64,000 nt of DNA. It comes from a virus. A model generated the notes under the pieces. That model was given only the letters and a program-made list of their open reading frames with translations. It did not search any database and was not told where the DNA came from. The stretch is from IMG/VR virus record IMGVR_UViG_3300021599_002733, one strand, 5' to 3'. Shown here one piece after another: positions 14,111 through 62,245 of the stretch. The position numbers and the translations under genes were made by a program. Numbering within the stretch: the first letter of the stretch is position 1; each line of letters opens with the position of its first letter.

Positions 14111-14329
14111 TTATATATTTTTTGCTTCACGCAACACTTTTAGAGCTTTTTGCATGTACAAAATATCATCAAGTTTTTCCTGGATGGAGTGTTCTAACCA
14201 TTCCTCTAAAGATAAATCGCCGCGATCCAAATCTGTTCCGTATTTTTGTTTTCCTATAGTGGCTCTATCAACGAATTTGTCTATAATGGAATCTACAATT
14301 GAATCTGTAACCTTAATTTCTCTTGTCAT
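14111..14329 (-). CDS. small alpha-helical NTP-pyrophosphatase-like phage protein
   Basis: G..KYGTDLDR.DL...EWLEH..QE.LD.ILY. Confidence 0.5.
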   Translation of the reverse strand: MTREIKVTDSIVDSIIDKFVDRATIGKQKYGTDLDRGDLSLEEWLEHSIQEKLDDILYMQKALKVLREAKNI

Positions 14330-16616: not shown

Positions 16617-17353
16617 AGTTGCAACTTGTTTTTTATAACCTTTTCGTTTAATTCATCTTCCCATAATCTAATAAGAAGTTGATTATTTTCCAAACAGATT
16701 TTGTTTTTCTTTAAATCGTTTTTTCTGCTTTTAATTTGAGAAAGGTTTAATTCATGTTCCTCTAAATTTTTTCCATGCCAATAATTTCCATCTATTTCTA
16801 CTAAAACATCCATATCTGTAAGATAAAAATCAAAGTGATGGTGTTTGAATTTGTAATTTTGGATATAAGGTATTCCCCATTCTTCCAAGTATTGTTTAAA
16901 TATTCTTTCAGGTTTTGTATTCGTCTTAATTTCAGATAACGTATAATATAATGAATTGGCACAACTTCTACATAAATGTTTATTTGTGGTTTTTTGAATA
17001 CTATTTAATTGGGTATCACTTAAATTTTTCCGTTTGTGTTTTTTAATATTTCCACAGTTTGAGCAGGTTGAGGTAAATATTCTATCTTGTTTTTCCCCGT
17101 ATTTGCTAATATGCCATTTTTTTACAGCACAACTATTACATTCTCTATTATTTTTAACTGCTATCCTATATGGGTCTCTTTGTAGGAGAGAAATTTTATT
17201 ACATGTTGGGCAAGTATATTCAAATGTTTGTTTATTTGAAGATAACATACATGGTTTACATGTATTTCCTTTTCCGAATTTTCCTTTTTTGTTGTTGTAA
17301 TATTGATCTAAATGTTTTGATTGTTTACAAACATTACATGTTTTGGTTTCCAT
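16613..17353 (-). mobile_element. free-standing homing endonuclease, Zn-ribbon repeats + DUF559/Vsr-like nuclease
   Basis: Multiple CxxC, then TKPE...FDFY...VEIDGNYWH...ND..K...LIRLWE; own late motif 17367-17375. Confidence 0.8.
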
Positions 17354-17365
17354 AGTATAGTTTTA

Positions 17366-17449
17366 TTATACATATTGAAGGTAATCCCTTTTTCGCCAAA
17401 GGCATTGACCATTTTGAAAACGCTCTACATATAACGTATTTTCTTTCAT
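17366..17449 (-). pseudogene. relic 5' end of clamp loader gene (MKENTLYVERF...)
   Basis: First 11 codons match clamp loader start MKENTLFNEKF; sits right after the operon promoter. Confidence 0.75.
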
Positions 17450-18066: not shown

Positions 18067-19047
18067 TTATTTTATAATTCCTGCTCGTCTTAGCATTTGA
18101 TATCTTTCAAAATCAAAATCTAAAGATTCTTTCAGTTTTGTTTTAAAGTCAAAAGCTATTGGTTGTAGAGCTGCTCTTTGAGATGCTGTTATACCTGTTA
18201 CAACTAGTTTGTATTTTCTTTCCTCACCTTCATCAACAGGGGAAATTTCAAATTTTGCATTTGGAACGTCTCCAAGTTTTGCTTGCAATTGTTTACGAAG
18301 TTTATCTGCTTGATCAGCTGTGTTTACAGTGGTAGAAAGTGGTGGAACTTCCTCTGCTTTTGGTTTTTCTATAGTTTGTGGTGTTTCTGTATCACCTGCT
18401 TCTATGCTGATTACTGTATAGCCTACTCCAGCGTTATCAAATACAGTTTTTAATACTTTTTCAAGGTATGCTTTTGTATTGAATGGATTTTCCATAGAGG
18501 AAGGAAATATGATTTTCCCATCTTCTACTTTGTAGTTTACATCCTTTTCCAATTTACCAGCATATTTTTTCAAGTTTGCTGGGGTTTTCATTGGAAAGTA
18601 ATTTGCTCCGTAACGGCCAACTAGCTCTTTTGGTAAACTTTTTCCAGGGAGAGAAAACAAGTAATCATTTAAACTACCATCGTTTCCTTCTGCTTGCCAT
18701 TTTTCATAGCCTGCTTCTGCTTCTTTTTCAGTAGCTGTCCATGCTTGGGGTACTCTATTTTTGATGTCTATAAGTTTGAATGCTTTTTCATCTTCCGAGC
18801 GAGAATCCCAGTCTTTCCAAGCAGCGCCTGCTTTTTGTGCAGGGATAGAAGGACCAAATGCTTTTGCAATAGCTTTAGGGTCGCGCATATTTTGCGCATA
18901 TATACCGTAATTTTCAATGTTGTCTAGTGCTTTTAGAGCATCATCTAGTGATTCTGGGTCAATGGCTAGATCATATTTGACACGAAGTTGTTTTTGGTCT
19001 CCACCTTCTTCATCTTCTATTTCACGTAGTATATCTGTTAATTTCAT
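18067..19047 (-). CDS. putative virion internal protein (MKLTDILREI leader; C-terminal MLRRAGIIK tag)
   Basis: Late motif at 19051-19059; both tag types present. Confidence 0.6.
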   Translation of the reverse strand: MKLTDILREIEDEEGGDQKQLRVKYDLAIDPESLDDALKALDNIENYGIYAQNMRDPKAIAKAFGPSIPAQKAGAAWKDWDSRSEDEKAFKLIDIKNRVPQAWTATEKEAEAGYEKWQAEGNDGSLNDYLFSLPGKSLPKELVGRYGANYFPMKTPANLKKYAGKLEKDVNYKVEDGKIIFPSSMENPFNTKAYLEKVLKTVFDNAGVGYTVISIEAGDTETPQTIEKPKAEEVPPLSTTVNTADQADKLRKQLQAKLGDVPNAKFEISPVDEGEERKYKLVVTGITASQRAALQPIAFDFKTKLKESLDFDFERYQMLRRAGIIK

Positions 19048-34256: not shown

Positions 34257-35051
34257 TTAGAGTCCATTTATTTTTCTAAACATTTGAACATTATATTCTA
34301 CAAGATCTTCATTTACAAACTCCAAACTTATATCTTGATATTTGTTCATGTTAGCTATTGGTTTGGAAGATAAACCCATGTTTGTATATGGCATTTCTCC
34401 AATAGCGGCCATTACAGGGTTTGATGTATCAATTGATTCTATACATTTCATCCCATTATATAAACCAAATTCAATAGGAGATGCTGTTCCAAGCAAATGT
34501 ACTCTATCTGTGTCGGTTAGTATTTTGTCTTTTAGCAATTGTGATATAACTGTAAAACGTCCAATTGCTTTTCCAAGGTCTTTGTTTGGGTGAGGGCACA
34601 TTTCATTGTAGTATGAAGCACCATATGAATATGCTATCTTTTTATAGCCAAAATCTTTATATGCTTGTGTACATAGAACAGCTTCGTGGTAAGATTTTGC
34701 TTGTACTACAGCTACTTTCATTACTCCATCAGGTAGTTCAATTTGAGACCATAGTTTTGCATTTCTAACTGAGGCGTCTTTGTCCTCCCAAACATCAGGT
34801 ACAATAAATTCATTTGGTTCAAGTTTATTTATCCAATACATTAAACGATCTGTATTATATGCTTGACCTAATTCATGGAGTGAATTATCCATTACAATGT
34901 AGCGGGCTACATTTTTTGAGTTAAGAAAGAATGTACTATATTCTTCGTTTTCATCCATCAAATGGGGTAAGAGGTAATCAAAATCATTGAACTCTCGACT
35001 TTTCTCTAAAAGACAAAAAGGAACTTCATGTGATATTTTCATTTTTTTCAT
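34257..35051 (-). CDS. TGT-fold protein, putative DpdA-type 7-deazaguanine transglycosylase
   Basis: MDNS, VPDV, AVVQ, VHLLG, SIDTS in TGT barrel order; next to queC/D/E/folE. Confidence 0.7.
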   Translation of the reverse strand: MKKMKISHEVPFCLLEKSREFNDFDYLLPHLMDENEEYSTFFLNSKNVARYIVMDNSLHELGQAYNTDRLMYWINKLEPNEFIVPDVWEDKDASVRNAKLWSQIELPDGVMKVAVVQAKSYHEAVLCTQAYKDFGYKKIAYSYGASYYNEMCPHPNKDLGKAIGRFTVISQLLKDKILTDTDRVHLLGTASPIEFGLYNGMKCIESIDTSNPVMAAIGEMPYTNMGLSSKPIANMNKYQDISLEFVNEDLVEYNVQMFRKINGL

Positions 35052-35078: not shown

Positions 35079-35684
35079 CTAAATTTTGTACCTCCAAATA
35101 TATCCAACAGAAGTAGCATTTTCTCCTTTTCTTAAAGCATTGTTAATCGCTGTAGGGTTTCCACCAACATTTCGAGCTGCTTCTTCAATGCTGGGGTGTT
35201 CTTGGATAAAATTCCCTTGTTTGTCATATTGGAGGACAGGTTTGTTATTGGATGGGATAGGTTTTCCTTTTTTAGATTGGCTTATTTTAAGTTTATTTTC
35301 TTCACTTCGTGTTTTACCTTTCCAATGGGAATTTTTTCTTTTACCTACATTCAATTTTCCTTTTTCGCTAATAAGTTTTCTGGTGTTTTCGTTGTGGGCT
35401 TCTACCCCACCTCCTCCAGGGTTTGAATTTAAACCTTCACTATATGAGTTATAGAATTCAATCCAGTATTTTTCTCGTTGAGCTAACAAAATTTCAATAT
35501 CTTCTATCACTTCAAATGTATGGTTTTCAAAACCGTATATTTCAAAGGATTGATTTAATTTTGGTTGTTTTTCAGTTTTACTACTATTCTTGTAATTCAT
35601 CCATCTAACATGGATATTTTGTGAACATCCTATATAAACTTCTCCTTTTGGGTTTGTAATTTTATAAATTCCACTTTTTTTCAT
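35079..35684 (-). mobile_element. free-standing GIY-YIG homing endonuclease (NUMOD3 + NUMOD1)
   Basis: SGIYKITN...YIG.S.NI..RW, REKYWI, GLN...GG, SEENKLKIS, PVLQYD..GNFIQE. Confidence 0.9.
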
Positions 35685-43916: not shown

Positions 43917-45268
43917 GTGTTTAATTCAAAAAATTTATGAGACAACATTCTTCTATCTAGGTCATCAAAATTGGTATTTTTAGATGGTGATTGCCTAGGT
44001 TCATCATCTGGGTCTGGGGTATCTGTAATTTCAAAATGCCCAGTGGAAGTATCAGCATTTAAATAAAAGGTAACTCCATCCATTCCATATCTGTTTTTCA
44101 TAACGTGAAATCTACCTGTGTTATTTACTTTATCTTCTTTTTTTCTTGAAAGTGATAGGGCAAAGTCTGTAATCATCATTTTGTCGTAACTACCGGCTGC
44201 TTTATCACCTTCAATAACATCATCTTTTGATCCTGCACGGTTAACTTGTGATACACTCCATATTGGGAGATTTAATTCACGAGCTAGACCCTTTGTGCTA
44301 GTATAAATATCATCTATTTCAAATTTACGATCTGTAGATTTGCGTTTTGATGAAAGAAGATCTACATAATCTATAATGATCAAATCTGGTTGGATTCCTA
44401 GCGAGATGATTTTTTTAATATGAGACTCTATTGTATTAATTGTTGCTTTTCCTGTTGGGAATTCTTTAATAATCAATTCACCTTGTAGTTGTGGCATTAC
44501 TTCTTCTACTTTATCTCGGTTTTCCAATATTTTGTTAACTGGGATGTGGGTAAAGAAAGCATCGTACCGTCTGCCAACATAATCTTCACCTAGTTCAAGA
44601 GTGTAATGTAAAACGTTATACCCCATTTGAACAGCATATCCGCCTAAAGCAACAAGTGACCAAGATTTACCACCTCCTGGGTTACCAAATATAAGGCCAA
44701 AATCTCCATTTCCAAGTCCACCTTGTAGCATTTCACTAATTTCAGGCCAAGGGGTTGGAACCGTATTTCGATTATCTTCTCTATACCTTGATTCAACATC
44801 TTTATTATATTCATGTCCTATATTTTTATCTTGTCCCGCTTTCATTGCATTTTCAATCATCATTTTGATTGAATCATAATCGCCAGCTTTTAATAGATCT
44901 ACACTACTTAATAGTGCTTTTTTTAGTTGTTGGTTTTTACAGAATGTAGAGAATTCTTCTTGTACATATTCTGTATCTTCTTCACTAGATTTATAAGCTT
45001 CTCTAAGTTGTTCTTTAACAGCAACTTGTAAAACCTCATTTGAGATTTTTTTCATCTCTGTTTTTAACACATCCATAGATGGATTGGTGTGATATTTTTC
45101 GTAATATCTAAGTATTTCTTTGATTATCCACTTATGAGCATCTTTCCCAAACACATCTGGGTCAAGTATATCGTTAATGTTTACAAGGAATTCCTTGTGG
45201 GTTAATAATGAAGAGATTACTTTGGTTTGGAACTGTGGTCCATATTCCTCGATTGAATGTAACGTCAT
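43913..45268 (-). CDS. replicative DNA helicase (DnaB / T4 gp41-like)
   Basis: GNPGGGKS, TLEL, IIDYVDLL, SQVNR, KNRYG. Confidence 0.93.
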   Translation of the reverse strand: MTLHSIEEYGPQFQTKVISSLLTHKEFLVNINDILDPDVFGKDAHKWIIKEILRYYEKYHTNPSMDVLKTEMKKISNEVLQVAVKEQLREAYKSSEEDTEYVQEEFSTFCKNQQLKKALLSSVDLLKAGDYDSIKMMIENAMKAGQDKNIGHEYNKDVESRYREDNRNTVPTPWPEISEMLQGGLGNGDFGLIFGNPGGGKSWSLVALGGYAVQMGYNVLHYTLELGEDYVGRRYDAFFTHIPVNKILENRDKVEEVMPQLQGELIIKEFPTGKATINTIESHIKKIISLGIQPDLIIIDYVDLLSSKRKSTDRKFEIDDIYTSTKGLARELNLPIWSVSQVNRAGSKDDVIEGDKAAGSYDKMMITDFALSLSRKKEDKVNNTGRFHVMKNRYGMDGVTFYLNADTSTGHFEITDTPDPDDEPRQSPSKNTNFDDLDRRMLSHKFFELNT

Positions 45269-45304
45269 TTGCTTATAACTTTTATTTGTAAATATAATAA
45301 TCCT

Positions 45305-46333
45305 TTATTTGGATGTCACTAGATTTTGAAAAATATCTTTAATCCAAAATTCTACATTTCGAATTAAACCACCTAGCTGGTCTTCATTATACATATTAAT
45401 GAATTCTTTGGCATGGAGTTCAAGTGGGAATGGTTTGATAAATTCAGCAATATATTCTTTATCATCATCAGTCATCATGGGATTGGATAAATCCATGATC
45501 TTGTATTTGTTTTCAAGCATTTCTATATCATGTAGTATTCTAGCATAAACTACATGCTCTTCCATTCTTTGTTCACTTAATTCTATTATATCATCAAATG
45601 ATAGATGTTCAGTAGTTAATTCAGGGAATTTTTTGAAGAGTGTTTTCGCGCCTAACCCTTTAATTCCCGGTAGAGCATCGGAAGCATCCCCAAGAAGTGT
45701 TTTCATTAAAATAAAATTGTGAGGATCTAAACCGAATTTTTCTTTGACAACAGACTCCGTGAAAAATTCCTTTTCAATTGGTCTATACACAATTACTTGC
45801 TTGCTTACCAACTGTAGGTAGTCTTTATCGCTCGAAACTATAAATACCTTTTCATCTTCTTTTTGAGGTAATACTGAGCTTAAATGGGCTATGATATCGT
45901 CTGCCTCTACTCTATCTAGCGAGATAACTTTAACAGGTAGTGTTTGAAGGTATTCTATAATTCGAACAATTTGGGAAACTTTTGCATCATCTTCCTCATC
46001 AATATTGTCAAACAATTCATGTTTGGTTACTCGAGTTAAATTACGGTTTGATTTATATTCGGGTATAATATTTTTACGATTGTTTGAGGAACCAACTCCA
46101 TCAAATACAACTATAATTTGTGTGGGTTGTATCTGACGGGTTAGTGCTCCTAAAGATCTAAAAAAACCACCTAAACCACCAACGTGGGCTCCGTTTGAAT
46201 TTACTGCGTTGATGATGGAAAAGTTTCGAAAGAATAAATTCAATCCATCAATCAGCATATATCTTTCAGGTTGAGGAGCCTCAACATTGTTCTCTTGGAC
46301 ATTGTCCAAAAGTTTTAATAGATCTTTTTTCAT
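45305..46333 (-). CDS. 5'-3' exonuclease / RNase H (FEN family)
   Basis: LIDGLN, VVFDG, YKSNR, EADD, SSDKD..QL, GDASD..PGIKGLG.KT. Confidence 0.93.
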   Translation of the reverse strand: MKKDLLKLLDNVQENNVEAPQPERYMLIDGLNLFFRNFSIINAVNSNGAHVGGLGGFFRSLGALTRQIQPTQIIVVFDGVGSSNNRKNIIPEYKSNRNLTRVTKHELFDNIDEEDDAKVSQIVRIIEYLQTLPVKVISLDRVEADDIIAHLSSVLPQKEDEKVFIVSSDKDYLQLVSKQVIVYRPIEKEFFTESVVKEKFGLDPHNFILMKTLLGDASDALPGIKGLGAKTLFKKFPELTTEHLSFDDIIELSEQRMEEHVVYARILHDIEMLENKYKIMDLSNPMMTDDDKEYIAEFIKPFPLELHAKEFINMYNEDQLGGLIRNVEFWIKDIFQNLVTSK

Positions 46334-46344
46334 ATAACTTTTAT

Positions 46345-47433
46345 TTATTGTAAATCTTCTGGTTCGAACATATCGGAGATATCTCCTTTTTCGTCCCATT
46401 CGGAGTTGTCTTCAATGACTTTGTATTCTCCTTTACCTAAAATGTCTGCCCACTCACTAGCGTGTGATTTTTTATACTTGTCTATAGCAGTTGGTGAATC
46501 TGGGATAAATCCATGGGCTGTGCTTACAATTGTTCCAGTGGTGGCAACTCCATTGATGTGGTTTTTATCACAAGCAATTTTGGTTCGCAATGCAAATTCT
46601 ACCTTCTTTTTATCTTTTGTAGCAGATAATTTTGAAGTACCAGCGTTTGTAACATTTCCAAAAGTCAAACACAATGAAGCATCATAGTAAAATGTATCTC
46701 CACCTTTGTTTGTCATTTTGGGTTGTGACATTGGAGTTAGAGCAGGAGCAACACCTACTTTATTCACAATAAACAAGGTATTCGTGTATTTTGAGCTTTC
46801 CTTACGAGACATTACAATCTGTTGATTAATAAAGTTTCCGAATTGAGTTGCAATGGCTCCTGCGTTCCACATTGGGTTATTTGAGCCCTTTTCAATACTC
46901 ATATCACATGCAATTGAACCCACTGAATCCCATACAAATAGTAAATCGTATGGTAGATTGCCTTTCTTTTGTTCTGTTAATAGATCAATGATAAAAGTAG
47001 CAATATCTTCAATTGAATTTAGAGTACTTCTATCCCTATAGATAAAGAATCCATTTTGATCAATTATTTCACCCGTTGATTCATCTACTACATCTTCGAT
47101 ATCGAATCCCATCATTTTCCAATGGTTCCAATCGTGTTTCATTTCTGTGATTATCAAAACAGGTAATACACCCATTTTTTGAGCATTTACTGCTGTTTCA
47201 ATAGTCATTGTGGATTTCCCAGTATTACTTTTCCCACGAACCATAGCAATATGGCCCATTGGAATTCCTGGGATAGACAATGCTTCTTGTAATGCTGCTG
47301 AGAAGGGGATCCATCTTTGTTCTTTGAATTTAACATTAGAGGATAAACCCTTATTTTCTTTAAATTTGTCTAAACTGAAGGCGGACTGGATTGCTTTTCC
47401 AGCCGCCATAGTTAGTGATTTTCTTCCGGCCAT
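46345..47433 (-). CDS. RecA/UvsX-like recombinase
   Basis: GIPMG, GKSNTGKST, VWDSVGS, KGG..., KNHING. Confidence 0.85.
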   Translation of the reverse strand: MAGRKSLTMAAGKAIQSAFSLDKFKENKGLSSNVKFKEQRWIPFSAALQEALSIPGIPMGHIAMVRGKSNTGKSTMTIETAVNAQKMGVLPVLIITEMKHDWNHWKMMGFDIEDVVDESTGEIIDQNGFFIYRDRSTLNSIEDIATFIIDLLTEQKKGNLPYDLLFVWDSVGSIACDMSIEKGSNNPMWNAGAIATQFGNFINQQIVMSRKESSKYTNTLFIVNKVGVAPALTPMSQPKMTNKGGDTFYYDASLCLTFGNVTNAGTSKLSATKDKKKVEFALRTKIACDKNHINGVATTGTIVSTAHGFIPDSPTAIDKYKKSHASEWADILGKGEYKVIEDNSEWDEKGDISDMFEPEDLQ

Positions 47434-47448
47434 AACTTATTTTTAATA

Positions 47449-48288
47449 TTAAAACGGCATATCATCATCTTCATCATCAAACAAAGCATCAAATTTGTCT
47501 ACTGGTTTTGCTGCTTGTTTTTTGGTAGATAAGCTGTAGTTTGATTTTGGTTCTTCTTGAAGTTCTGCTTCAACAGTTGCTGTTTCTTCAACCTCGTTTG
47601 CAACATCTTCCTCTTCAGGATCCAAGAAATTCTGTAGGATTGATTTTAGATCTTCAAATGATTTTTTGAATTTCTCTTGCATATCCAAAATATTAGGTTG
47701 ATTGTCAAGCCAATATTCAATTTGCGAAGCATCATCTGATAGGGTAGAAGTTTTACGTTTTGGGCGAATAGATGATTTTAAAGCTTGGCGTCCACCAACA
47801 TCACCCATTACAGCCTCTAGTGTAAAGTCAAATCCTTCATTGATGTCTGTAAAGTCACCATAATCCTCATCTTCAGCTAGTGCTAAAAGTTGCATATATG
47901 TTTCTTTACCAAATTCCCATAAACGAACACCTTTGTCTTCTTCACCGCGAACGATAACAGGAGCAAAAATACGCATTTTAGGGTCTAATTTTTTGGCTAA
48001 TTGCCAATTGGTACGATCATTTGTACCACGTAGTTGCTTTGCAAATTCAACAATTGGATCTTTTTCACCCCAATTCGTTAATGCATAGATTGGAAATTTA
48101 GATAAACCATAGTGAAGGTGTACTTCTTTAAATGGGTTATTCTTGTCGAATTTTGATGGAACAATTCGAATTTGATACTTGCCTTCTGCTCTGGGCTTCC
48201 ACTGTGTTAAGGAATAATCAACCTTTTCTTTCTTTTGCCCGCTTGTTTGTAAGGCGTTGAGTTTGTTTTTAATCAGACTTAAATCCAT
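47449..48288 (-). CDS. single-stranded DNA-binding protein (gp32-like)
   Basis: WKP..G...IRIVP, DPI, GVRLWEFGK, GDFTD..EGFD, acidic DDDMPF tail. Confidence 0.85.
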   Translation of the reverse strand: MDLSLIKNKLNALQTSGQKKEKVDYSLTQWKPRAEGKYQIRIVPSKFDKNNPFKEVHLHYGLSKFPIYALTNWGEKDPIVEFAKQLRGTNDRTNWQLAKKLDPKMRIFAPVIVRGEEDKGVRLWEFGKETYMQLLALAEDEDYGDFTDINEGFDFTLEAVMGDVGGRQALKSSIRPKRKTSTLSDDASQIEYWLDNQPNILDMQEKFKKSFEDLKSILQNFLDPEEEDVANEVEETATVEAELQEEPKSNYSLSTKKQAAKPVDKFDALFDDEDDDMPF

Positions 48289-48314
48289 ATAACTTGTTTT
48301 TATTAATTACAACT

Positions 48315-48345
48315 TAAATATAATAACCTTTATTTAATACTCCAA
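48315..48345 (-). promoter_or_regulatory. promoter TTG-N20-TATATTTA
   Basis: Exact spacing upstream of ssb. Confidence 0.6.
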
Positions 48346-48346
48346 A

Positions 48347-48808
48347 TTAGAGTTCAACTATCCTGAAGATTTTTGTGTTTAATTGCTTGATCTCATTATG
48401 TTGAGTTAGCAATATACAATTTTTGTAATGTTGCCAATTTATGGCAAATCTTGTGTCAACTACTCCACCGTTTAAACTTTTGATAAGTTCGTTTAGAGCG
48501 TTAATTGTATAAAGGGAGTTTGTTTCTTTTTTTCTATGTACTAGAATAGTATTTTCTGGGATTCCATCAACATTTCCTTGATCAACATTGTAAGTGATAG
48601 CATATTCATTATTGCTTTTGACATGCAATACAAACATTTTATTATATAATATATCGTACTTCTTGGTTAACTCAGAAACTAAGGTATCTAACCCCTCAAG
48701 TGGTGTAAAAGTACAGAACAGTCTATTATTCATTGAAAAGAGATCAATTGTATCAAAATCATACTGGTGATACATATCGGTAGGGGGTTCCAAAATTGAG
48801 TTGTACAT
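48347..48808 (-). CDS. conserved phage hypothetical protein
   Basis: LFCTF, TYN, ILVHRKKETNSLYTINALN. Confidence 0.65.
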   Translation of the reverse strand: MYNSILEPPTDMYHQYDFDTIDLFSMNNRLFCTFTPLEGLDTLVSELTKKYDILYNKMFVLHVKSNNEYAITYNVDQGNVDGIPENTILVHRKKETNSLYTINALNELIKSLNGGVVDTRFAINWQHYKNCILLTQHNEIKQLNTKIFRIVEL

Positions 48809-48814
48809 AACTGT

Positions 48815-48859
48815 TTAATTAAAATTGTAAGTGTTTCCTTTTTTAAATTTGACTTGTAA
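48815..48859 (-). pseudogene. relic 3' end of polA gene (LQVKFKKGNTYNFN*)
   Basis: Matches current PolA C-terminus LQVKLKKGTNYHNIS* on the far side of the HNH gene. Confidence 0.8.
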
Positions 48860-48880
48860 TTGAATTATACACAATATTTT

Positions 48881-49627
48881 TTATATTTCCAAATTAGGAT
48901 CATAAATTTCTTTTTTTCCTATATTTCTATTTCCTCTTAGAGTATCTCCAAATTGTTGAGATATTTCTGTTGTTTTCCATAACGGAAAAAGATTTTCTAA
49001 ACTCCAACATTCTTTAATTTCTTCAACATTCAAAACATCAAATAGATTTTGTGGTTTAATATGATGAATTTCCCAAACATTTCCAAAATTATCCCAACAC
49101 ATTCCGTTCCTGAATTTGTTTTCTATATGGGATTGGAGTTGATCAAATGTATAGGAAATTATTTTGGAAAAAGATAAATTTTTGTTTTTTCCTTTATCTT
49201 TAAAAAATAAATGGAAATTTGCTTTCATAACAGTTTGTAACTTAAATTGAATGTTATTTTTATATTTTATCTTCCAATTTAATTTTCTTTTTTCTTTTAC
49301 ATTATCTTGTTTAGAATAAATTAACAATCGTTCTTTATTATCTTGATAGTATTTTTCCCAATACCCATTTTCCTTGTACTTTTTATTGAATTTATCTCTT
49401 TGGATCTGATATTTTTCTGGGTTGTTTTGTTTCCATATTTTATGTCGTTCTGTTTCTTTTTTAGTATAATATTGTTGGTTTTTTAAATATGACTGTTTTA
49501 CACTAATTTTTACACATATCTTACATCTTTTATTAAAACCATCTTCTGTGTTTTTATTTTTATTAAAATTACATAAAGGTTGGGGGGTTTCTTTTAAATG
49601 GCATTTTGGGTTATTACATACTTTCAT
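48881..49627 (-). mobile_element. free-standing HNH homing endonuclease
   Basis: N-terminal Cys knuckle, charged helical repeats, M.WDN.G..WEIHHIKP...C..L.NL.PLW; start at MKVCNN. Confidence 0.85.
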
Positions 49628-49645
49628 TTTATCATAAATATTGAA

Positions 49646-49663
49646 AGTCTCCAAGTTTTGTAA
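49646..49663 (-). promoter_or_regulatory. putative operator / target mimic TTACAAAACTTGGAGACT abutting late motif
   Basis: Synonymous variant of polA codons LQNLET at 49873-49890. Confidence 0.6.
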
Positions 49664-49668
49664 ATTTT

Positions 49669-50931
49669 CTATGAAATATTATGATAATTTGTGCCTTTTT
49701 TGAGTTTAACTTGTAATTTGTTTTTTTTAAATACTTTTAATATTTCTTTTAAAATATCTTTTTCACTTTTATCTACGTCAAATAAAAAAGAATCATAGAC
49801 ATACAAGATCAACTTTGTATTTTTTCCTCTAAGTAATTTTAAAATATCCCACAATATTAATATGTTCTGGGAAGTTTCTAGGTTTTGAAGTAAGTAATTT
49901 AATAACTTTTGTGGATTCATATCCTCCAACTGGTCTCTTTTATATATGTGTTTTGAAATTGGACATTCAATGTATCCTTGATAGTTAAAGGTATCCCACA
50001 AATCATCTGTGTATGATTGCATTTTCTTAAAAAATTCAAGGTGTTCATATTCTTTCCAAACACCACCATACATTTGTTTAAATGTTATTTCTTTAGACTT
50101 GGCGTAATCCACTCCATACATTTCAGCAAAACTTTGATGAATATCATCGCTAGAAAAAGTATAATCAAGTAAATTGGCCAAAAGAGTAGGATGATAAGCG
50201 CTAATATCCATTTCAAGGAAAAAATCATTACGCGGGATGAAACATTTTCTTTCTCCATTGTCTTTGTTTAATGCTGCAAAATTTATACCCCCAAATTTAT
50301 TGGAAGGGCGAGTTGTTGTTGTACTTAAATTATATTGGGTGTATATATAACCTCCATTATTTTTGTTAAAATATTCCTCAAATAAAGGAACATTTACTTT
50401 TATTCCATTGCGCTCTATAGCGTTAAATACAATAGTTGTTTTATCGTTATAGAATTTGTTTGGTTGTATATCAAAGTATTCTTTTAATGTATCAAAATGT
50501 CTTTCACAAACTTCATAATGTTTAACAATAGGAACAATTATGTTTATATTTTTTTGCTCTGGGTATTTGGAGTAAAAGAATGAATGTGTTGTAGTTGTTT
50601 CTTTTTCAAATTTAGGGTGTAGTAGGGTAAGGGAAACTATAGTTGGGTGGTAAAAGTAGTGTAAAAATTCCTTTTTATCTATCACATATATTTTCTCTAT
50701 ACTATATAATAGTTCTTGAACTAAATTAAAATCAACGCGAAACGTTTCGCTATGATGAACAGTCACCATATGCCCCTTACTTCCATCTACCGGTTTAATA
50801 TACACGGTAGATACGCTGTTTTCGGTTGGGTGGATGGTAGGTGAGAAAGGAATTACTTCAACATATGCTTCCTTTATTTTTATTGTGGAGAGTATGTCTA
50901 TTTTTTCCTTATCTTCTATCAACCAGTACAT
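49669..50931 (-). CDS. compact DNA polymerase family A
   Basis: IERNGI, TTTTRPS, CFIP, DISAYH (motif A), KEITF..MYG (motif B), NY.LQ, VYDS (motif C). Confidence 0.8.
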   Translation of the reverse strand: MYWLIEDKEKIDILSTIKIKEAYVEVIPFSPTIHPTENSVSTVYIKPVDGSKGHMVTVHHSETFRVDFNLVQELLYSIEKIYVIDKKEFLHYFYHPTIVSLTLLHPKFEKETTTTHSFFYSKYPEQKNINIIVPIVKHYEVCERHFDTLKEYFDIQPNKFYNDKTTIVFNAIERNGIKVNVPLFEEYFNKNNGGYIYTQYNLSTTTTRPSNKFGGINFAALNKDNGERKCFIPRNDFFLEMDISAYHPTLLANLLDYTFSSDDIHQSFAEMYGVDYAKSKEITFKQMYGGVWKEYEHLEFFKKMQSYTDDLWDTFNYQGYIECPISKHIYKRDQLEDMNPQKLLNYLLQNLETSQNILILWDILKLLRGKNTKLILYVYDSFLFDVDKSEKDILKEILKVFKKNKLQVKLKKGTNYHNIS

Positions 50932-50955
50932 GGGATGTAAGATACAAAAAGTATT

Positions 50956-51555
50956 TTACTCTCCCACATAGTATTTTGAAAAATCTTCTTTAAAGTACTG
51001 TGAAAAACCATACCACTTTTGTTTTTGCTCAATTAACGAGATCAAATTTTTATTAGTGTTATATACTTTTTCTCTATCCCCTTTTATATACCATAAAGTA
51101 TCCAATGGGGTGTATAAATCCCAGGCTATTTGTGATGATTTAGCTTTTAATTGAGAATATGTTGGTTGGTTAATTTCTACATATATCAATTCGTTGTTTT
51201 TCTTACAGAAGAAACGTTGAAATACTCCCAAGGATATATCTTTTTGGGTAGGTGTTGTTGGATTATATTGAGGTAATGATCTATTTGGGAGGGAGTTTGA
51301 TATAGATTCATTAAGAGAATATATTATTGGAGATGTTAAGTCTGTGGTTGGTGGGGTTGGTGGGGTTATGGATTGAATTGAGTTTTGAACAATTAAAAGT
51401 ATATTCTGTCCGTCTTGTGGTGTTTTACCTGTGTATTTTCTTCCATTAGATATTTCATAGTAATATCCTTTATATTCTTCCTTTGTGGTGGATAGAATAT
51501 ATTCATTACCATTGGTAAATAAATTGGATTTTATTTGAGATTTTGGAAAGTACAT
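50956..51555 (-). CDS. hypothetical (probably tail-associated) protein
   Basis: End of baseplate operon; Y.GYY...G..YTGK.P, G.FQRFF.KK.N. Confidence 0.55.
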   Translation of the reverse strand: MYFPKSQIKSNLFTNGNEYILSTTKEEYKGYYYEISNGRKYTGKTPQDGQNILLIVQNSIQSITPPTPPTTDLTSPIIYSLNESISNSLPNRSLPQYNPTTPTQKDISLGVFQRFFCKKNNELIYVEINQPTYSQLKAKSSQIAWDLYTPLDTLWYIKGDREKVYNTNKNLISLIEQKQKWYGFSQYFKEDFSKYYVGE

Positions 51556-51564
51556 TTATATTTT

Positions 51565-52212
51565 TTAATTGCTATATATTTCATCTACTATGTCTATTAC
51601 CGATCTAGCATATCCTATTCGTATGTTTTGGGTAGCTTTATATGCTTGTGGATTTGCTTTTCTATTTAAATATGTACCCGGGACTTCAAATTTTTCTAGG
51701 ACATATATTGTGCTTTCTTCAATAGATTTACTGGTTGATAGTTTTTTTAGTACAGAGGGATAGGAGGATTTTAATTCATTCCCTAAGAACTGGAGTTGAA
51801 AGTTTAGATTAAATAGTATATTTGGGTTTTTATTTGCAGCATTTTCTAGTTTCCTTCTCCTAGATGATGTCCATTGAACTATACCTATTCCTCCACTTCC
51901 TCCTATATTTGGATTACTTTCAGCCGCTTTAGGATTAGCTTGAGATTCCCCTAATATATTCCCTAAAAATCCTATAGTTCCTTCTCTAGTTATCCCTAAT
52001 GATTTAAAATAGTATGCTATTTTTCTAATAGTATCTTTTTTAGAACTAAGAGTTATTTTTTCTGCTACAAACGATCTAACCTCTCCAATCAATCCCGAAA
52101 CACTATTTAATGGTGGGTTGTTGGTTGATTCAAGTGAAGAACCTAGGGATCTTGTTCCTTCATCTATTAACTTGTCTACTATAGCTTTTATTTCTTGATA
52201 CGATAATGGCAT
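51565..52212 (-). CDS. phage tail lysozyme domain protein
   Basis: GFLGNILGES, G.GIVQWT..RR, QL.F...EL, FEVP, R..YA. Confidence 0.8.
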   Translation of the reverse strand: MPLSYQEIKAIVDKLIDEGTRSLGSSLESTNNPPLNSVSGLIGEVRSFVAEKITLSSKKDTIRKIAYYFKSLGITREGTIGFLGNILGESQANPKAAESNPNIGGSGGIGIVQWTSSRRRKLENAANKNPNILFNLNFQLQFLGNELKSSYPSVLKKLSTSKSIEESTIYVLEKFEVPGTYLNRKANPQAYKATQNIRIGYARSVIDIVDEIYSN

Positions 52213-52214
52213 AA

Positions 52215-54779
52215 CTATTCGGATTTGGATATGGTTACTGTCTCTATTGTAGTTTCCCAATCACTGTCTGAGAGTTTATGGTTTACTCCTTTGATAATAA
52301 ATCGTAGGTTCTTTGGATAATTTCTTGGGAGAAATCTAGTGTTTACATTTACTTCATTATATATCTTAATTCCTGAAATCCCATCCATAGTTACACTAAG
52401 GTTAATTGGTATGAATCCGGATGTTGGGGATGCATAGGAACCACTTGTTTCTTCTTGGATTTTGGATTGACAATATTTGTAAAATTCTGTTACTAGTGTG
52501 ATGTTTTTGTCAATAATTTCATCGTTTATAGCAGCAACATCATCGCTAAAGTAGTCGTTTGCAACATCTTTTAAAGTATACCCAAAAGGGGATAAAACTT
52601 TTGTCCAAAATTCCTTAACATATAGTTCATTCGGTTCATCAACTGAGCCGGATATGGAAGTGGTTCTTGCATTTTTAGGTGGGACATATTTTTCTTTCCA
52701 TGGATCTTGTAAACCTTTATTCCATTTGGAAAACATTGTATTTTCTACCCCTTTTGTATAACCTCCAGCAGTGGAACCAATGGTGGCCATGTTGGCAAAA
52801 TCGTTTGTAATTTCTGTTTTAAGGTTAAAATTACGAACAAAATTAGATGCGTTTTTCTGGTCTGGGTTGTATCCGTATAGTTCTAGTTCGTATGTGGGGG
52901 TGTTTATTGGTTGGTAGCTTCCATCTATTATATAAATGGTGTTTGTATCCTCATCTAGTACTGGTTCTAGGTTGTTTACACCACCTAGTGCTTTGTTTAA
53001 AGCTATGCAAATTGAATTTAAAAAATCAAATAGGTTAACATTTCCTTTTTCATCCATATTCTCGTTCAAACTAGTAAGAATTTGAGCATGGCTAATATAA
53101 ATATTCATTGTCCATCCATATCCTTTATCTAAATTTTTCCATGGGATCAATGTAGGGAAATATTCTTTTTCACTAATTTTTTCTCCTCCATTCACTATAC
53201 AAACTCTAGGATCCAATGATACTTGATACGGGAAAATATACATTCTAGTTCCCCATTCATCCAAGTCAATATTTACCATAGGAACCTCATTCCCATAATT
53301 ATCTGAGTTGGCAATTGATGGGACAACATATTGTTGGAGGAATTGGAGAAGATGACCGAATCTCATGTAAAAACCTTGATCATTAATTGGACCATTTTCA
53401 TCATCCGTACCATTATTATAGTTTAAGTATACTACATCTTTATCACCTTGATCAGTATCAAAAGAATCTAATACAGGAAAAGTACGTAATATAACTTGAT
53501 AATCACCTGCTGACGTTCTTACTATAGTATAAACATTTGTAGTGGATGGAAAAAGTGCTGAGGGGGAACTTACTTCGGTTGGTGCTGGGTCAATATTTTG
53601 AGATGTAACCCATTCTATTGATTGTTCTTTTGTGTTAAATACAGGGGAATTAACTAAAACACCTCTATCAATTTTTATAGCTCCTTCAGGTTTTTTAACA
53701 AATACACCTCCAAGTTCGGGTATTTGATTATTTATTCGGATAAATACATCTCTTCTGTCACGTCTTTGTTTTGCTGTGTATCCATCAGAAGTATTGTTGA
53801 ATTTATCTACGTATAACTTTTGTAAAAATAGATATGCAGAAATCCAATTATCAGATGGAGATGGTGGGATTGCACCATCTTCTACTACTGCTGTATCTTC
53901 CTTATACAGAGCATATGTTTGAGATATAAAATTTGAAACATCTAGAGATGGTGCAATGTTTAGTTTTAAAGATTCTATAACATCTCCTAAACTAATTAAT
54001 TCCAAAGAAATATCATATGAACCATCTTGAGCAAATGACCAACTAAAGTTAACTACTTTGGATAATAGACCATCGTAATTGCCTTTTTTGTTTTTTCTAT
54101 ACCCCTCTATTACTGGAAGGAAACCAGAATATGAGCTGTTTTTCCATCTGTCTGAGAAAAATCCATATTCTTGGGCTTCTGTTAGAGTATAGGCCATTTT
54201 TTGAAGTTTACCATCTTCCTCTAAATATAAGCTATTTCCCCACTCTAGAAATACAGTGTATCCTAGGCGCAAATATAGAAGATCTATAATTTGGAATTGT
54301 TCGGGGCTATAACACTTAATATTTACCGTTGCTCGTTTTATAGAACCTCGGTTTAAACACTTTACCTCCACACTTGTAATACCAGGCATAGGAGCCAAAC
54401 CAAACTCACTCGGTTTAGTGGAAGCATTCACATTGTATGTTCCATTTTGTGCACCCCAAATATTACCGTCTGTGGAAGAACTCATGGTTCCTCTAGGATC
54501 TAATGAACCTGATAGAAGTGTTGAGGTACCGCTGAACAATACATGGTGTTTAGCTAAAGATTCCCATGCAAATCCACCACGTATTTCTTCTTCTTCTAAT
54601 CTTTCTGGGGTAACTCGAACGCTAGAGGCTAATTTTACCCATGCTGTTTTGGAGTTTAGATATGATAATTGTTCAAGGGTTCTAGAGGAACCATTTGTTC
54701 CCGAACCATGAGCTTCTTGTCTAGCTTTAATTTGATCTCTTACATATCCTCGGAGTTGTTCTCCTATAATTTTTCCCAT
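52215..54779 (-). CDS. baseplate hub / large baseplate protein
   Basis: PMPGITS...ATVNIKC...LYLRLG..VFLEWG; C-terminal L.VTMDGISG...FIIKGVNH...WETTIET. Confidence 0.65.
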   Translation of the reverse strand: MGKIIGEQLRGYVRDQIKARQEAHGSGTNGSSRTLEQLSYLNSKTAWVKLASSVRVTPERLEEEEIRGGFAWESLAKHHVLFSGTSTLLSGSLDPRGTMSSSTDGNIWGAQNGTYNVNASTKPSEFGLAPMPGITSVEVKCLNRGSIKRATVNIKCYSPEQFQIIDLLYLRLGYTVFLEWGNSLYLEEDGKLQKMAYTLTEAQEYGFFSDRWKNSSYSGFLPVIEGYRKNKKGNYDGLLSKVVNFSWSFAQDGSYDISLELISLGDVIESLKLNIAPSLDVSNFISQTYALYKEDTAVVEDGAIPPSPSDNWISAYLFLQKLYVDKFNNTSDGYTAKQRRDRRDVFIRINNQIPELGGVFVKKPEGAIKIDRGVLVNSPVFNTKEQSIEWVTSQNIDPAPTEVSSPSALFPSTTNVYTIVRTSAGDYQVILRTFPVLDSFDTDQGDKDVVYLNYNNGTDDENGPINDQGFYMRFGHLLQFLQQYVVPSIANSDNYGNEVPMVNIDLDEWGTRMYIFPYQVSLDPRVCIVNGGEKISEKEYFPTLIPWKNLDKGYGWTMNIYISHAQILTSLNENMDEKGNVNLFDFLNSICIALNKALGGVNNLEPVLDEDTNTIYIIDGSYQPINTPTYELELYGYNPDQKNASNFVRNFNLKTEITNDFANMATIGSTAGGYTKGVENTMFSKWNKGLQDPWKEKYVPPKNARTTSISGSVDEPNELYVKEFWTKVLSPFGYTLKDVANDYFSDDVAAINDEIIDKNITLVTEFYKYCQSKIQEETSGSYASPTSGFIPINLSVTMDGISGIKIYNEVNVNTRFLPRNYPKNLRFIIKGVNHKLSDSDWETTIETVTISKSE

Positions 54780-54786
54780 AACATTT

Positions 54787-55101
54787 TTATATTCCTCTAT
54801 TTAAACTATCATATTGCGATAATATGTTAGGTATTCTTTGTGGGGATGGTATTCTAATTTGATCCCCATAATTTGGAATTAATGAATCCGTTGGTTGAGT
54901 TGGGTTTGCTCTAGTTATAACCCACCATAAAGAAACATCTCCATAATATGTTAAAGCCAAAGTATCATACCTATCACCTCTTGTAGTATACACATAGATA
55001 TCTGAAAAGTCAAGGATAATTTCAGGGTATTTTACTGTAGTATATCTTCTTTGAGGGATTTCTACAGTTTGGGTAATTGGTATGTTTGAATAACGGGCCA
55101 T
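54787..55101 (-). CDS. LysM-like baseplate wedge protein (gp53-like)
   Basis: GDRYDTLA..YYGD..LWWVI..AN...QIRIP. Confidence 0.8.
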   Translation of the reverse strand: MARYSNIPITQTVEIPQRRYTTVKYPEIILDFSDIYVYTTRGDRYDTLALTYYGDVSLWWVITRANPTQPTDSLIPNYGDQIRIPSPQRIPNILSQYDSLNRGI

Positions 55102-55102
55102 A

Positions 55103-57070
55103 TTATTGGTTTATAAATGTATGTTGAGTTCCATCCCATAGTATTTCTGGTCTGAAGTTATGGATTGGGGTAAATTTAATACCTGTTACCTTAATATACA
55201 TTGGCAATTGTCTTCCTGGGGTAATTTCCCAAGGTGATTCATCCATTACCTCGTATGTTAAACCATCCATGATACCAACTTGATTTGAAATGTAATTTCC
55301 TACAGTTAATTGATGTAAATTTCCAGCCATATATCCGTATGTAGTATACGTAGGGGCTAATGATGCAGCAAGTAAATTTAATTGTCTATACATTACATCC
55401 AAGTTATCAGATGAATCTGCCACTATTGTAAAGCCCAAAGATATACTCCTATCGAATGAATTGTATTTGTAGAATTTTTCACCGCGACCCATATATGTTT
55501 GGCTTTTCCAATCTGAATTGTATGAATCTGAAAAATTGTCTATATATGCTCTGAATTTTAATGGTTTAGGGTTATTTGTTGGGTTACCAGGGTTTAAAAT
55601 TTCAAAACGAAAATCAATTAAATCGTTTTTTGATTCAATTGAATTGGAAGTACGTTTGTTTGCGGATGAATAATATATATTATCTACTGTAGTTACAGTT
55701 TCATAATCTGTAGAGTCTGTTATATAATCGTATGATCCAGTATAGTCAATAAATCCTCTTTTTCTTCGGCTAGCTAATCTAAAATCACCTGCTATTCCTC
55801 TCCCTCCTTCTCTTGGTGGGTTTTGTTGAAAAGTATATGTGTTTGTAATAGGGTCTACATATGAACCAGCATTTTTATTTAAATTAGCTAAATATCCTTT
55901 ATTATTGTCATTAAAAAGGGAGGATATTTCAGTATTGTTTAAACCATTAACATCAGCATCAGGGTCAATAGCCAATGAAGATAATGAATTGTATTCTGGG
56001 ATTATTCCATTATATGTAGAAGTAGCTCTCCAGGTATTTCCTGTAAGGAAGGTTGAGTCTGAGAGTAATTCCCGTCCAAAAAATCTAAGTTTTTGTTGGA
56101 TTTGTGATTTATAAGTAGTTTCAGATTGTTCTGTTTGGTGTTTTAAACTGTTTCCAATTTGATATCCATTACTTCCACTCAAAGTTAACCCTTTTGTGTC
56201 TTTGCTTAAAGTTGAAAATGGGAATGTGTAATTATATAAAGATGTAAAAGTACCATCTTCTGTAATTCCTATTTGAGAGTCATCTAATCCTTGTTTTTTA
56301 CTAGCCCCTAAACCATATGTAATCTTATCATTATAAATAATACTATCGCTATTTGGTCTGGTTAAACCACCAGTATAAAAATATTTTTTATTGGTGGAAG
56401 ATAATGGATTGTTTACACCTGTTCTTTGATCAGCATGTCTAATATGAGTTCTACCAACACCTAAAACAGATCCAGGTCCTCCACCGTAAGTAATAACATC
56501 ATTACCTTGATTTAGATCATATCCTTTTACTCCATTAAAATTTTTAAGAGAATATAGAGATAAATTTACTAATTTATTTTTTTCGGAAGGTTGATCAAAC
56601 GTAACAATATCATTGTATTTGTTTATGCTTAACCCAGGCAACAACCCAGTTGGGTCAATACCTTGTTTATTTAAATGTATACCCGCGAATCCAACTCCAG
56701 CTTGCGCTAATGTGGATAATGGTGTATAAACACCTTCATTCAACGCTCCACCGGCATATCCTATACCTTTGGAAGCTTCGGTTTTTGGAGCTGTACGGGA
56801 TAGGAGGTTTTGTTTGGCTGTGAAAAGTAAACCACTAGGTGATTTCAAATCAAACATGTATTTGGTTAACCTAACAACATCTTGTGCAGCATCAATTGGA
56901 GCATTCAACCCACCACGCAATAAAAAATCTTTTGATTCTGGTAGTGGGTTATTCAGTATTGGGTCTTGAATATATGGTTGTCCGCTATCCCCACCTCCAG
57001 GTCTGTCGTTTCCAAACTTGAGAGATTTCAGTGCGGTATCACCGTTCTGTAATTTAATTAAAAGACCCAT
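55103..57070 (-). CDS. baseplate / tail tube initiator protein
   Basis: C-terminal FRAYI..FSD...W....YMGRGE....Y..F.RSISL.F domain; between TMP and LysM. Confidence 0.65.
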   Translation of the reverse strand: MGLLIKLQNGDTALKSLKFGNDRPGGGDSGQPYIQDPILNNPLPESKDFLLRGGLNAPIDAAQDVVRLTKYMFDLKSPSGLLFTAKQNLLSRTAPKTEASKGIGYAGGALNEGVYTPLSTLAQAGVGFAGIHLNKQGIDPTGLLPGLSINKYNDIVTFDQPSEKNKLVNLSLYSLKNFNGVKGYDLNQGNDVITYGGGPGSVLGVGRTHIRHADQRTGVNNPLSSTNKKYFYTGGLTRPNSDSIIYNDKITYGLGASKKQGLDDSQIGITEDGTFTSLYNYTFPFSTLSKDTKGLTLSGSNGYQIGNSLKHQTEQSETTYKSQIQQKLRFFGRELLSDSTFLTGNTWRATSTYNGIIPEYNSLSSLAIDPDADVNGLNNTEISSLFNDNNKGYLANLNKNAGSYVDPITNTYTFQQNPPREGGRGIAGDFRLASRRKRGFIDYTGSYDYITDSTDYETVTTVDNIYYSSANKRTSNSIESKNDLIDFRFEILNPGNPTNNPKPLKFRAYIDNFSDSYNSDWKSQTYMGRGEKFYKYNSFDRSISLGFTIVADSSDNLDVMYRQLNLLAASLAPTYTTYGYMAGNLHQLTVGNYISNQVGIMDGLTYEVMDESPWEITPGRQLPMYIKVTGIKFTPIHNFRPEILWDGTQHTFINQ

Positions 57071-61471: not shown

Positions 61472-62155
61472 CTAATTTTTACTTTTATTTCTATTTCCTG
61501 TTTGATCTACATATCCAAAACTTTTTGCTATTTCTGTTGTTTTAAATAGGGGTTGGAGGTTGGTGTAGTGGAAGCATTCTTTTTGTTGATCCAAATCTAT
61601 TAAATCAAAGGAAGCACAAGGTTTGATATGATCTACTTCCCAAATTTCTCCGTGATTTTTCCAAGACATTTCTGGGAGGAATTGGGTTGAGATGTGTTGT
61701 TTTAGGTAATCTAAGGAGCAATCTAAAAGTTGGATGATATTACTATTTTTATATGTTTTGTTCTTCTTTAAAACTTCATTTAATCTATTACCTAATATAA
61801 TTCTTAATTTATAATTTGTATCATTTTCCCATTTATTTTTTCTCCAAATCTTAAAATACTCTGCATTATTACGTCTCCATTTATTGTATGTTTGTTTTGT
61901 TTGGGTAGGATTATTTTTTTGGTAAGCTATACTTTTTTGATTAACTTTCTGTTTGTTTGTTTGGTAGTATTTTTTGCTGTTTAATTGGTATTTTTCTTTA
62001 TTTTCTTGATAGTAGAGTTGATTGTGTTCTCTTTTAAGGTTATTGTATTCTATTCTACATAAGGTGCAAATATTGTTGTATCCATCTTTGGATGATGTTT
62101 TTTTATAGAAATTTGAATATTCTTTCTCTTGGAGGCATTTTGTACATTTTTTCAT
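61472..62155 (-). mobile_element. free-standing HNH homing endonuclease (paralogue of 48881-49627)
   Basis: CTKC..EK...F......DG....C..C, MSW.NHG..WEVDHIKP..SF...CFHYTNLQPL; start at MKKCTK. Confidence 0.88.
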
Positions 62156-62194
62156 AATATGTCGTTTGGGTCCATTATACATATTGAGAAAAAC

Positions 62195-62222
62195 AAAAAG
62201 AGTGCAATAATTTGCACTCCTT
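62195..62222 (-). terminator. intrinsic terminator after sheath gene
   Basis: GAGTGCAA-ATTA-TTGCACTC followed by TTTTTGTTTTT. Confidence 0.75.
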
Positions 62223-62245
62223 TCCATATTTAGTTTTCCAATTTC

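Follow-up and report, generated by a model that had tools for sequence, protein, structure and literature searches.

Why would a phage carry, in the few nucleotides between the end of its DNA polymerase gene and the predicted promoter of a nuclease gene, a second spelling of six codons of that same polymerase? The question is raised by a 64,000-nucleotide (nt) stretch of viral DNA, IMG/VR record IMGVR_UViG_3300021599_002733, the whole of which we call the window. Here a family-A DNA polymerase-like gene (polA) is followed by a putative free-standing homing endonuclease gene and then by a conserved gene of 153 amino acids (aa), and between the polA stop codon and the nuclease gene lies an 18-nt element, designated X (TTACAAAACTTGGAGACT). 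An earlier note on this DNA, made from the window alone, proposed that X is an operator equal to the sequence of a nuclease-susceptible polA allele, and that the resident allele has been recoded. On the basis of comparison with related contigs, our best reading is that X would be a binding site for the nuclease at its own promoter, an autorepression operator like that of I-TevI, and we put the probability of this at about one half. The features concerned are collected in Table 1.

Table 1. Features of the polA-nuclease region and of a second nuclease locus in the window, with the basis of each assignment.
Feature	Position	Strand	Basis
Conserved 153-aa gene	48347..48808	minus	directly follows polA in nuclease-free relatives
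Remnant of ancestral polA 3' end	48815..48897	minus	aligns to last ~83 nt of L018 polA
Candidate free-standing HNH-type homing endonuclease gene, 248 aa, ATG at 49627	48881..49627	minus	motif and genomic context
Right-hand junction copy AATTTGGAAATA (NLE-)	48884..48895	minus	start of displaced old polA 3' end
Promoter-like motif AATATTTATGA	49632..49642	minus	strand-specific recurrence before gene starts
Predicted target-site copy X (TTACAAAACTTGGAGACT), non-coding	49646..49663	minus	17/18 match to L018 polA allele
Foreign replacement polA 3' end (B')	49669..49905	minus	identity drop against L018; matches other cassettes
Family-A DNA polymerase-like gene (polA), 420 aa, complete, chimeric	49669..50931	minus	Pfam and PHROG
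Resident LQNLET codons CTTCAAAACCTAGAAACT, presumed resistant site	49873..49890	minus	sequence comparison
GIY-YIG gene	35079..35684	minus	same promoter motif upstream

A copy of nuclease-free polA codons before the nuclease gene

All genes between 48347 and 50931 lie on the minus strand. Read on that strand, X spells LQNLET, as do the resident polA codons (CTTCAAAACCTAGAAACT); the two agree at 13 of 18 nt and all five differences are synonymous, which bears out the description in the earlier note. Its placement of X between the polA stop and the nuclease promoter is likewise correct, as X starts 5 nt past the stop codon (TAG, 49671–49669), in a frame different from that of polA, and ends 4 nt (TTCA) upstream of the promoter-like motif AATATTTATGA, adjacent to it and not overlapping, beyond which comes the nuclease ATG. 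The motif itself, [ACT]A[TC]AT[TG]TAT[AG]A, occurs 14 times on the coding strand of the window and never on the other, each time 4–29 nt before an ATG (examples are at 14112, 15481, 22136, 24050, 40636, 45397, 57324 and 59772). It also precedes a second HNH gene, the GIY-YIG gene and a DUF559-type nuclease gene, among others, and is probably the promoter of one temporal class. Upstream of the other copies of the motif in the window there is nothing resembling the 18-mer X. A possible homology of the promoter region to the polA codons that follow LQNLET was considered and is too weak to use.

The polA relatives used for comparison were viral contigs, 31 loci and then 80 more (L001–L031, L063–L142), and in nearly all of them polA is followed within 5–20 nt by the 153-aa gene. 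Among nuclease-free relatives L018 is the closest (amino-acid identity to the window of 98.6% for RecA and 95% for the 153-aa protein), and in it no gene separates polA from the 153-aa gene. The LQNLET codons of L018 (TTACAAAACTTGGAGACC) match X at 17 of 18 nt and the window's resident polA at only 12 of 18. Over all fetched loci, the 14-mer CAAAAYTTGGAGAC occurs 47 times: 39 times at the polA LQNLET codons of nuclease-free genomes, eight times just upstream of a nuclease gene of the window's kind (type 1), and nowhere else. The claim that the proposed operator equals the susceptible-allele sequence therefore holds for the near nuclease-free alleles, which carry the codons of X, and a site at the endonuclease promoter resembling the probable homing site, as in the I-TevI arrangement, is found here with a 17/18 match to L018 and a 14-mer common to 39 alleles.

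These data also bear on chance resemblance in AT-rich DNA. When the 41-nt spacer was shuffled, a six-residue match to polA appeared in 113 of 200,000 shuffles and a six-residue match to any of eight neighbouring proteins in 449 of 200,000; moreover, with about 60 spacers scanned, the chance of some six-residue match is perhaps 0.1, and within the window just 13 of 18 nt are identical. Judged from the window alone, the match is thus suggestive and only moderately strong, short of decisive. Against chance, eight other cassettes have this sequence at this position, and it equals the nuclease-free polA allele, so that by comparison across genomes the match is beyond chance and the probability left to coincidence is negligible. 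A near-copy, CAAAACTTGGAGACG at 18267–18281, lies inside an unrelated open reading frame (ORF; KLGDV) and itself looks like chance.

The counterpart of the copy at X is its loss from the resident gene. Near-clade nuclease-free alleles have 0–2 mismatches to CAAAAYTTGGAGAC, with L001 as the single exception, and the resident site of the window has three mismatches in the 14-nt core, both leucine-codon changes included. The core sequence AAYTTGGAG is absent from the working polA of every nuclease-bearing genome (11 type-1 lineages, L060, and the type-2 genomes L005, L038, L116 and L039). These genomes have either synonymous variants (CTA GAA or CTT GAA) or amino-acid variants of a motif that is otherwise invariant (LQATET, LQQLET, LQNSET, LQLMET, LQGYET and IQSHET). 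Site-specific cutting of the nuclease-free allele and resistance of the resident allele are predictions whose correlate in the sequence is this loss of AAYTTGGAG from residents.

In the wider nuclease-free sample, TTA, CTA, GTG, ATG and amino-acid variants are common, and L078 and L102, which have no nuclease, carry CTA GAA ACA exactly as the cassettes do. Resistant-type ends therefore exist naturally and need no purposeful recoding. The check that the earlier note had suggested, codon usage at this site in polA alleles lacking the nuclease gene, thus gave a divided answer: near relatives match X, whereas a minority of distant alleles (L078 and L102) match the resident type. Its claim of a recoded resident survives in the sense that the resident site, like that of all genomes bearing a nuclease, is different, but the change arrived as a foreign segment of ~235 nt and not in place.

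The leucine codon TTG, which is rare (13% of leucine codons), is kept in 17 of the 18 near nuclease-free alleles, where it is the top outlier of 186 conserved columns by a statistic that ignores kinship among the 18; the neighbouring GAG and ACC are also enriched in this 18-allele test, and TTG is still found in 26 of 38 LQNLET alleles of the wider sample. This conservation may mark a nucleotide-level constraint in nuclease-free polA. It is also the basis of an explanation in which the polA bases TTGGAGAC have a function at the DNA or RNA level and X restores that element after the resident codons were replaced. We regard this as improbable. The variants that are common among nuclease-free alleles argue that the element is not essential, neither a structure nor an Rfam family was found (Rfam, 44000–56000, E<=1), the other promoters of the window do without the element, and type-2 cassettes manage without X.

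A probable mobile cassette with a replacement polA 3' end

How the resident polA came to differ is apparent from its alignment with L018. Nucleotide identity between the window and L018 is ~90–100% up to about polA residue 335, falls to 63–78% from about residue 335–340 to the polA stop, and returns to 87–98% directly past the nuclease gene; the jump in mismatch density places the left recombination breakpoint between 49923 and 49903. The 300 nt upstream of the site have their best match in L018 (89%), whereas the 246-nt polA 3' segment is best matched by L040 (79%) and L062 (76%), both nuclease-bearing and the carriers of the closest homologs of the inserted gene. The working polA is therefore chimeric, and its last ~235 nt came with the insert. 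A foreign polA 3' end with L018-like DNA on both sides is the pattern of co-conversion of flanking donor DNA. The gene remains one continuous ORF, complete like the nuclease-free alleles and ending before the nuclease gene; it matches Pfam DNA_pol_A (E=2.4e-5, under the gathering score) and PHROG 17 DNA polymerase (E=1.4e-10). An Rfam scan of 44000–56000 at E<=1 gave no match, and thus no intron or known RNA.

The polA end that was displaced lies on the far side of the nuclease gene. In the window it is a remnant with an internal deletion of ~109 nt, in which motif C was lost; it terminates in LQVKFKKGNTYNFN followed by the stop codon, and in its 3' part it hardly differs from L018. The remnants of L040, L047, L062, L049 and L035 share this deletion junction. 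Four lineages, L034, L041, L051 and L058, retain the whole displaced 3' end of polA without any stop inside it, beginning at (Q)NLET just past the nuclease stop codon; such ends are very recent, or possibly still expressed. A foreign polA end accompanied by the displaced remnant, as seen in the window and, with complete ends, in these four lineages, is the signature of terminus replacement. The stop-free ends lie at L034:1471–1674, L041:3207–3420 and L058:2722–2937, and in L058 a 71-aa ORF is called there.

The co-conversion tract begins 13–33 nt upstream of the LQNLET codons, at which the displaced ends start; this places the break at LQNLET and makes these codons the putative homing site, as read from breakpoints and remnants. 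Altogether, the region very probably contains a mobile cassette of ~1.05 kb, in which a foreign 3' end of polA with its stop codon is followed by the target copy, and this in turn by a promoter and the nuclease. Sequence comparison shows five elements of this picture, namely the anatomy of the cassette, the chimeric polA, the identity of X with nuclease-free alleles, the loss of that sequence from each resident polA, and the conservation of X described below.

Two further arrangements were seen past the polA stop. In L055 (1900–2000; also in L056 and L057), an extra, internally deleted polA 3' end (GTGTTCGTATATT...GAAATGACTTAG) lies between the polA stop and X, which suggests that the polA terminus has been replaced more than once. 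The inserts that follow polA in L021 and L024 encode repeat proteins, not nucleases.

The nuclease and its relatives

The nuclease gene is present or absent at a single locus: it is missing from L018 and ~100 relatives and present in the window and more than 12 other lineages. Homologs were collected from viral and metagenome contigs, and each one examined sits between polA and the 153-aa gene. The proteins, which are 54–89% identical among type-1 lineages, start with MK(K/V)CNNPKC at a conserved ATG and share a C-terminal motif, EIHHIKP...N...NLxPLW, in which H189 and N212 are invariant. An AF2 model (pLDDT 85.8) contains a beta-beta-alpha unit, and its structural matches to HNH nucleases (colicin E9, GVE2 HNH and Gme HNH) are weak, with Z of 3.7–3.8 or a Foldseek E>2 (Foldseek, VIA-align). 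Pfam, PHROG, NCBI-style motif and PDB sequence searches with the nuclease gave no family beyond a weak endonuclease-VII-like zinc region at the N-terminus; PF01844 is found in one distant homolog. We classify the protein as HNH-type by its motif, and as a putative homing endonuclease mainly by its genomic setting.

Whether X might be part of this protein can be judged from the same alignments. A coding N-terminal extension, with X translated together with the nuclease from the TTG at 49654 or by read-through, is suggested by the window, where X is in frame with the nuclease and the ORF list starts at the TTG inside X, and by L034, L040, L047 and L049, where X is also in frame. In L035, L041, L052, L055 and L058, X is out of frame or cut off from the nuclease ORF by stops. 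As X is in frame in some lineages and not in others, it is non-coding; in addition, the homologs all begin MK(K)CNNPxC at the conserved ATG, and X lies upstream of the promoter motif. Translation of X is thus very unlikely.

An unrelated second HNH family (type 2) occupies the same junction of polA and the 153-aa gene in L005 (5316–6002), L038 (~2490–3100) and L116, and has no LQNLET copy. The L005 protein has 228 aa and the motif DIDHKIP...NLQLL, and the resident polA genes of L005, L038 and L116 read CTA GAG, LQGYET and CTA GAA. When the phage collection was searched at the DNA level, no close relative came up, only short matches to Flavobacterium phages; on these weak matches, phages of this group probably infect Bacteroidota.

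A proposed operator or a possible insertion scar

The mechanism that we propose is as follows. The nuclease would recognise the polA sequence around LQNLET in nuclease-free phages, and the cassette would have entered an L018-like genome by repair of a break at these codons, pushing the old polA 3' end downstream, where it would now be decaying. The enzyme would also bind X and fail to cut it, because X holds only 18–19 nt of what is probably a longer site. Bound there, it would lower its own transcription or block read-through from polA. Such an operator is supported by conservation of X above the synonymous rate, from its position at the promoter motif, and from a parallel arrangement at the GIY-YIG gene described in the last section.

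In every type-1 cassette, X follows the polA stop by 3–6 nt and stands just ahead of the promoter motif, a placement kept in lineages whose nucleases are only 54–75% identical. The few nucleotides that separate X from the polA stop are not conserved. Ahead of the homologous nuclease gene, the element itself is conserved in L034, L035, L040, L041, L047, L051 and L062. It has the form TTACAAAAYTTGGAGACT in the window, L040, L047, L062, L041 and L051, the form ATACAAAAC... in L034, and the form ATGCAAAAT... in L035. Over 11 lineages, mean pairwise identity is 0.82 in the 15-nt core of X and only 0.62 +/- 0.06 in sets of 15 synonymous sites (third positions) from the nuclease gene (P about 4e-4); across lineages, these third positions are about 0.55–0.7 identical.

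Several observations weigh against the operator. X has drifted in L049, L052 and L058 (2–5 mismatches) and strongly in L055 (7/18), and its spacing to the promoter motif is 3 nt shorter in L041 and L051. The type-2 genomes with the second HNH family at the same site, and L039, have no copy. L060 has a different polA-derived piece in place of X, and when L060 is included the core identity drops to 0.70 (P about 0.07). X stands beside the promoter motif and does not span it; with the right-hand junction it makes a direct repeat of 13–14 nt, as would be expected of an insertion scar; and the support from the nuclease fold is weak.

In L060 (1955–2000 and 2700–2760; also in L061), the piece that precedes the promoter motif instead of the LQNLET copy is GTGTTGTGGGATATC, which corresponds to polA VLWDIF codons. 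The L060 nuclease is 43% identical to that of the window, its right-hand polA remnant starts near ETS, and its resident polA reads LQLMET.

The main rival to the operator is that X is an insertion scar that dates from the first landing of promoter and nuclease in polA. It would be either one half (the left) of a duplicated target site or the beginning of a polA 3' end displaced at an earlier time, and would travel with the cassette without regulating anything; its apparent conservation would then reflect the use of short homology in repair, or linkage, and not binding. Such a scar would account for the direct repeat (AAYTTGGA) that X and the right junction AATTTGGAAATA form around the promoter and the nuclease gene. 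Wherever a type-1 cassette retains this junction, CCN(T)AAYTTGGA follows the nuclease C-terminal IYxP, and the repeat may stem from a staggered cut, from unequal crossover, or from insertion into a duplicated 3' end. The polA fossil of L060, at the same place and overlapping the start of the right-hand remnant, also fits a scar, as do the extra decayed polA 3' end between stop and X in L055, which would be a case of serial displacement, the divergence or loss of X in several lineages, and the type-2 nucleases that occupy the same site without X.

What a scar explains less well is persistence. Five lineages with nucleases 54–75% identical keep 14–15 of the 15 core bases, well above synonymous-site identity, while the spacer beside X has not been kept. 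Eighteen nt that match the broken end perfectly would steer repair towards products in which polA is disrupted, which would be lethal, and a neutral X would therefore be expected to be lost and not kept. The two tandem mimics at the GIY-YIG gene are also hard to explain as a scar. We consider a functionless scar possible but less likely than the operator. The two explanations can both hold, with a scar kept because it is useful.

Relation to known homing systems

The model for the proposed operator is that of I-TevI, encoded in the td intron of phage T4. In the account of it given in PMC2988022 (after Edgell et al. 2004), the operator is identical to the homing site at 15 of 20 positions and overlaps a late promoter, it is bound as well as the homing site and cut about 100-fold less, and its deletion has a mild phenotype; the same account lists putative operators of both I-TevII and I-TevIII. 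Our locus resembles this system in having a homing-site look-alike at the endonuclease promoter, a partial site that would permit binding without efficient cutting. It differs in that the nuclease is free-standing rather than intron-encoded, HNH-type, and of an unannotated family, and in that the copy abuts the promoter motif instead of overlapping it and is closer to its target (17/18 against 15/20). Here a direct repeat also brackets the gene, with the copy as one of its two arms, and the operator role of the copy is a prediction from sequence. The loss of X in some lineages would fit the mild effect of operator deletion in the I-TevI system.

Intronless homing by free-standing phage endonucleases has been described for T4 SegF, SegG and MobE (PMC2988022, PMC2790892). 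As in those cases, conserved genes flank the endonuclease gene, relatives either have it or lack it, and its product presumably cuts in a neighbouring essential gene, with flanks co-converted and, here presumably, a resistant donor allele. Unlike them, the present cassette enters inside coding sequence and not cleanly between genes, brings a replacement gene end, leaves the old end as a pseudogene, and has a target copy at its promoter.

Replacement of a gene end has its counterpart in fungal mitochondria, where free-standing homing endonuclease genes are accompanied by partial duplications of atp6, cox1 or atp9 (PMC7487136). Both there and here, an essential gene is invaded without splicing: a foreign terminus takes the place of the resident one, and the latter is left as a displaced remnant next to the gene for the endonuclease. 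The present case differs in being in a phage and not an organelle, and in having a nuclease ORF that is separated from polA by a stop codon and has its own ATG and promoter motif, with no in-frame fusion. Paquin et al. 1994 reportedly described terminus replacement of this kind for atp6 of Allomyces. We know of no description of an extra target copy in the fungal mitochondrial cassettes.

Phage family-A polymerase genes are also the site of group I intron or intein insertions, as with I-HmuI and I-HmuII of SPO1 and SP82. The likeness to these is that an HNH endonuclease is tied to a conserved motif of a phage PolA-type polymerase; the difference is that polA is uninterrupted here, with no intron (no Rfam match at E<=1, 44000–56000).

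The locus thus appears to combine free-standing homing with co-conversion (PMC2988022) and terminus replacement of the mitochondrial type (PMC7487136). It would be a well-resolved phage case of an essential gene invaded without an intron or intein, by an element that brings a spare gene end. To our knowledge, autorepression through a homing-site look-alike has been shown for one enzyme only, I-TevI. This layout is now seen in uncultivated phages, in a nuclease family that is unrelated and unannotated, and at least 11 cassette lineages serve as its natural replicates. The locus offers a clear set of presumed sensitive and resistant alleles, a second case within one genome, and the predicted recognition sequence of a site-specific nuclease that is new. 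It makes it possible to test directly whether selfish nucleases commonly limit themselves by target mimicry.

Other nuclease loci in the window

The second example is at the GIY-YIG gene. Two tandem copies of a sequence spelling (I)FYCLPH (35738–35724 and 35719–35705, minus strand) run into its promoter motif. A 264-aa gene just downstream of the GIY-YIG gene (34257–35051) has DYLLPH in the window, DYCLPH (TATTGTTTACCCCAT) in the nuclease-free relatives L183, L184, L185 and L187, and QYALPH in L186, which bears the GIY-YIG gene. This would be a second target-mimic design, with an unrelated nuclease.

A more speculative extension, which we consider less likely than not, is that terminus-replacement cassettes of this phage group generally include a target mimic at the promoter, which evolves together with the rest of the cassette. 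These would be the cassettes with the HNH gene at the polA 3' end, the GIY-YIG gene before a TGT-like gene, and possibly the DUF559-type gene at the 5' end of the clamp-loader gene. A mimic of this sort would track the current specificity of its enzyme in an arms race with escaping alleles; possible examples are the L055 copy CAAAAAACAGAAAC, which is near QNTET-type alleles, and the L058 copy AATCTTGAGACT, near CTT-type alleles. If mimics are indeed general, the homing site of an uncultivated endonuclease could be read directly from the mimic sequence. The match of CAAAAAACAGAAAC to QNTET-type polA alleles (13/14) is not significant, as many allele classes share these flanks, and we offer it as a hypothesis only.

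A paralogous HNH gene (61472–62227, minus strand), whose product is 31% identical to the polA-linked nuclease, is flanked by a sheath-like and a tube-like gene. A terminator hairpin and the promoter motif precede it, and one TAG falls inside the match from the genome search; upstream of the gene there is no copy of the neighbouring sheath or tube genes. The Vsr/DUF559-type nuclease gene (246 aa, minus strand; 16613–17353, with 17367–17379) lies at the 5' end of the clamp-loader gene and has the same promoter motif.

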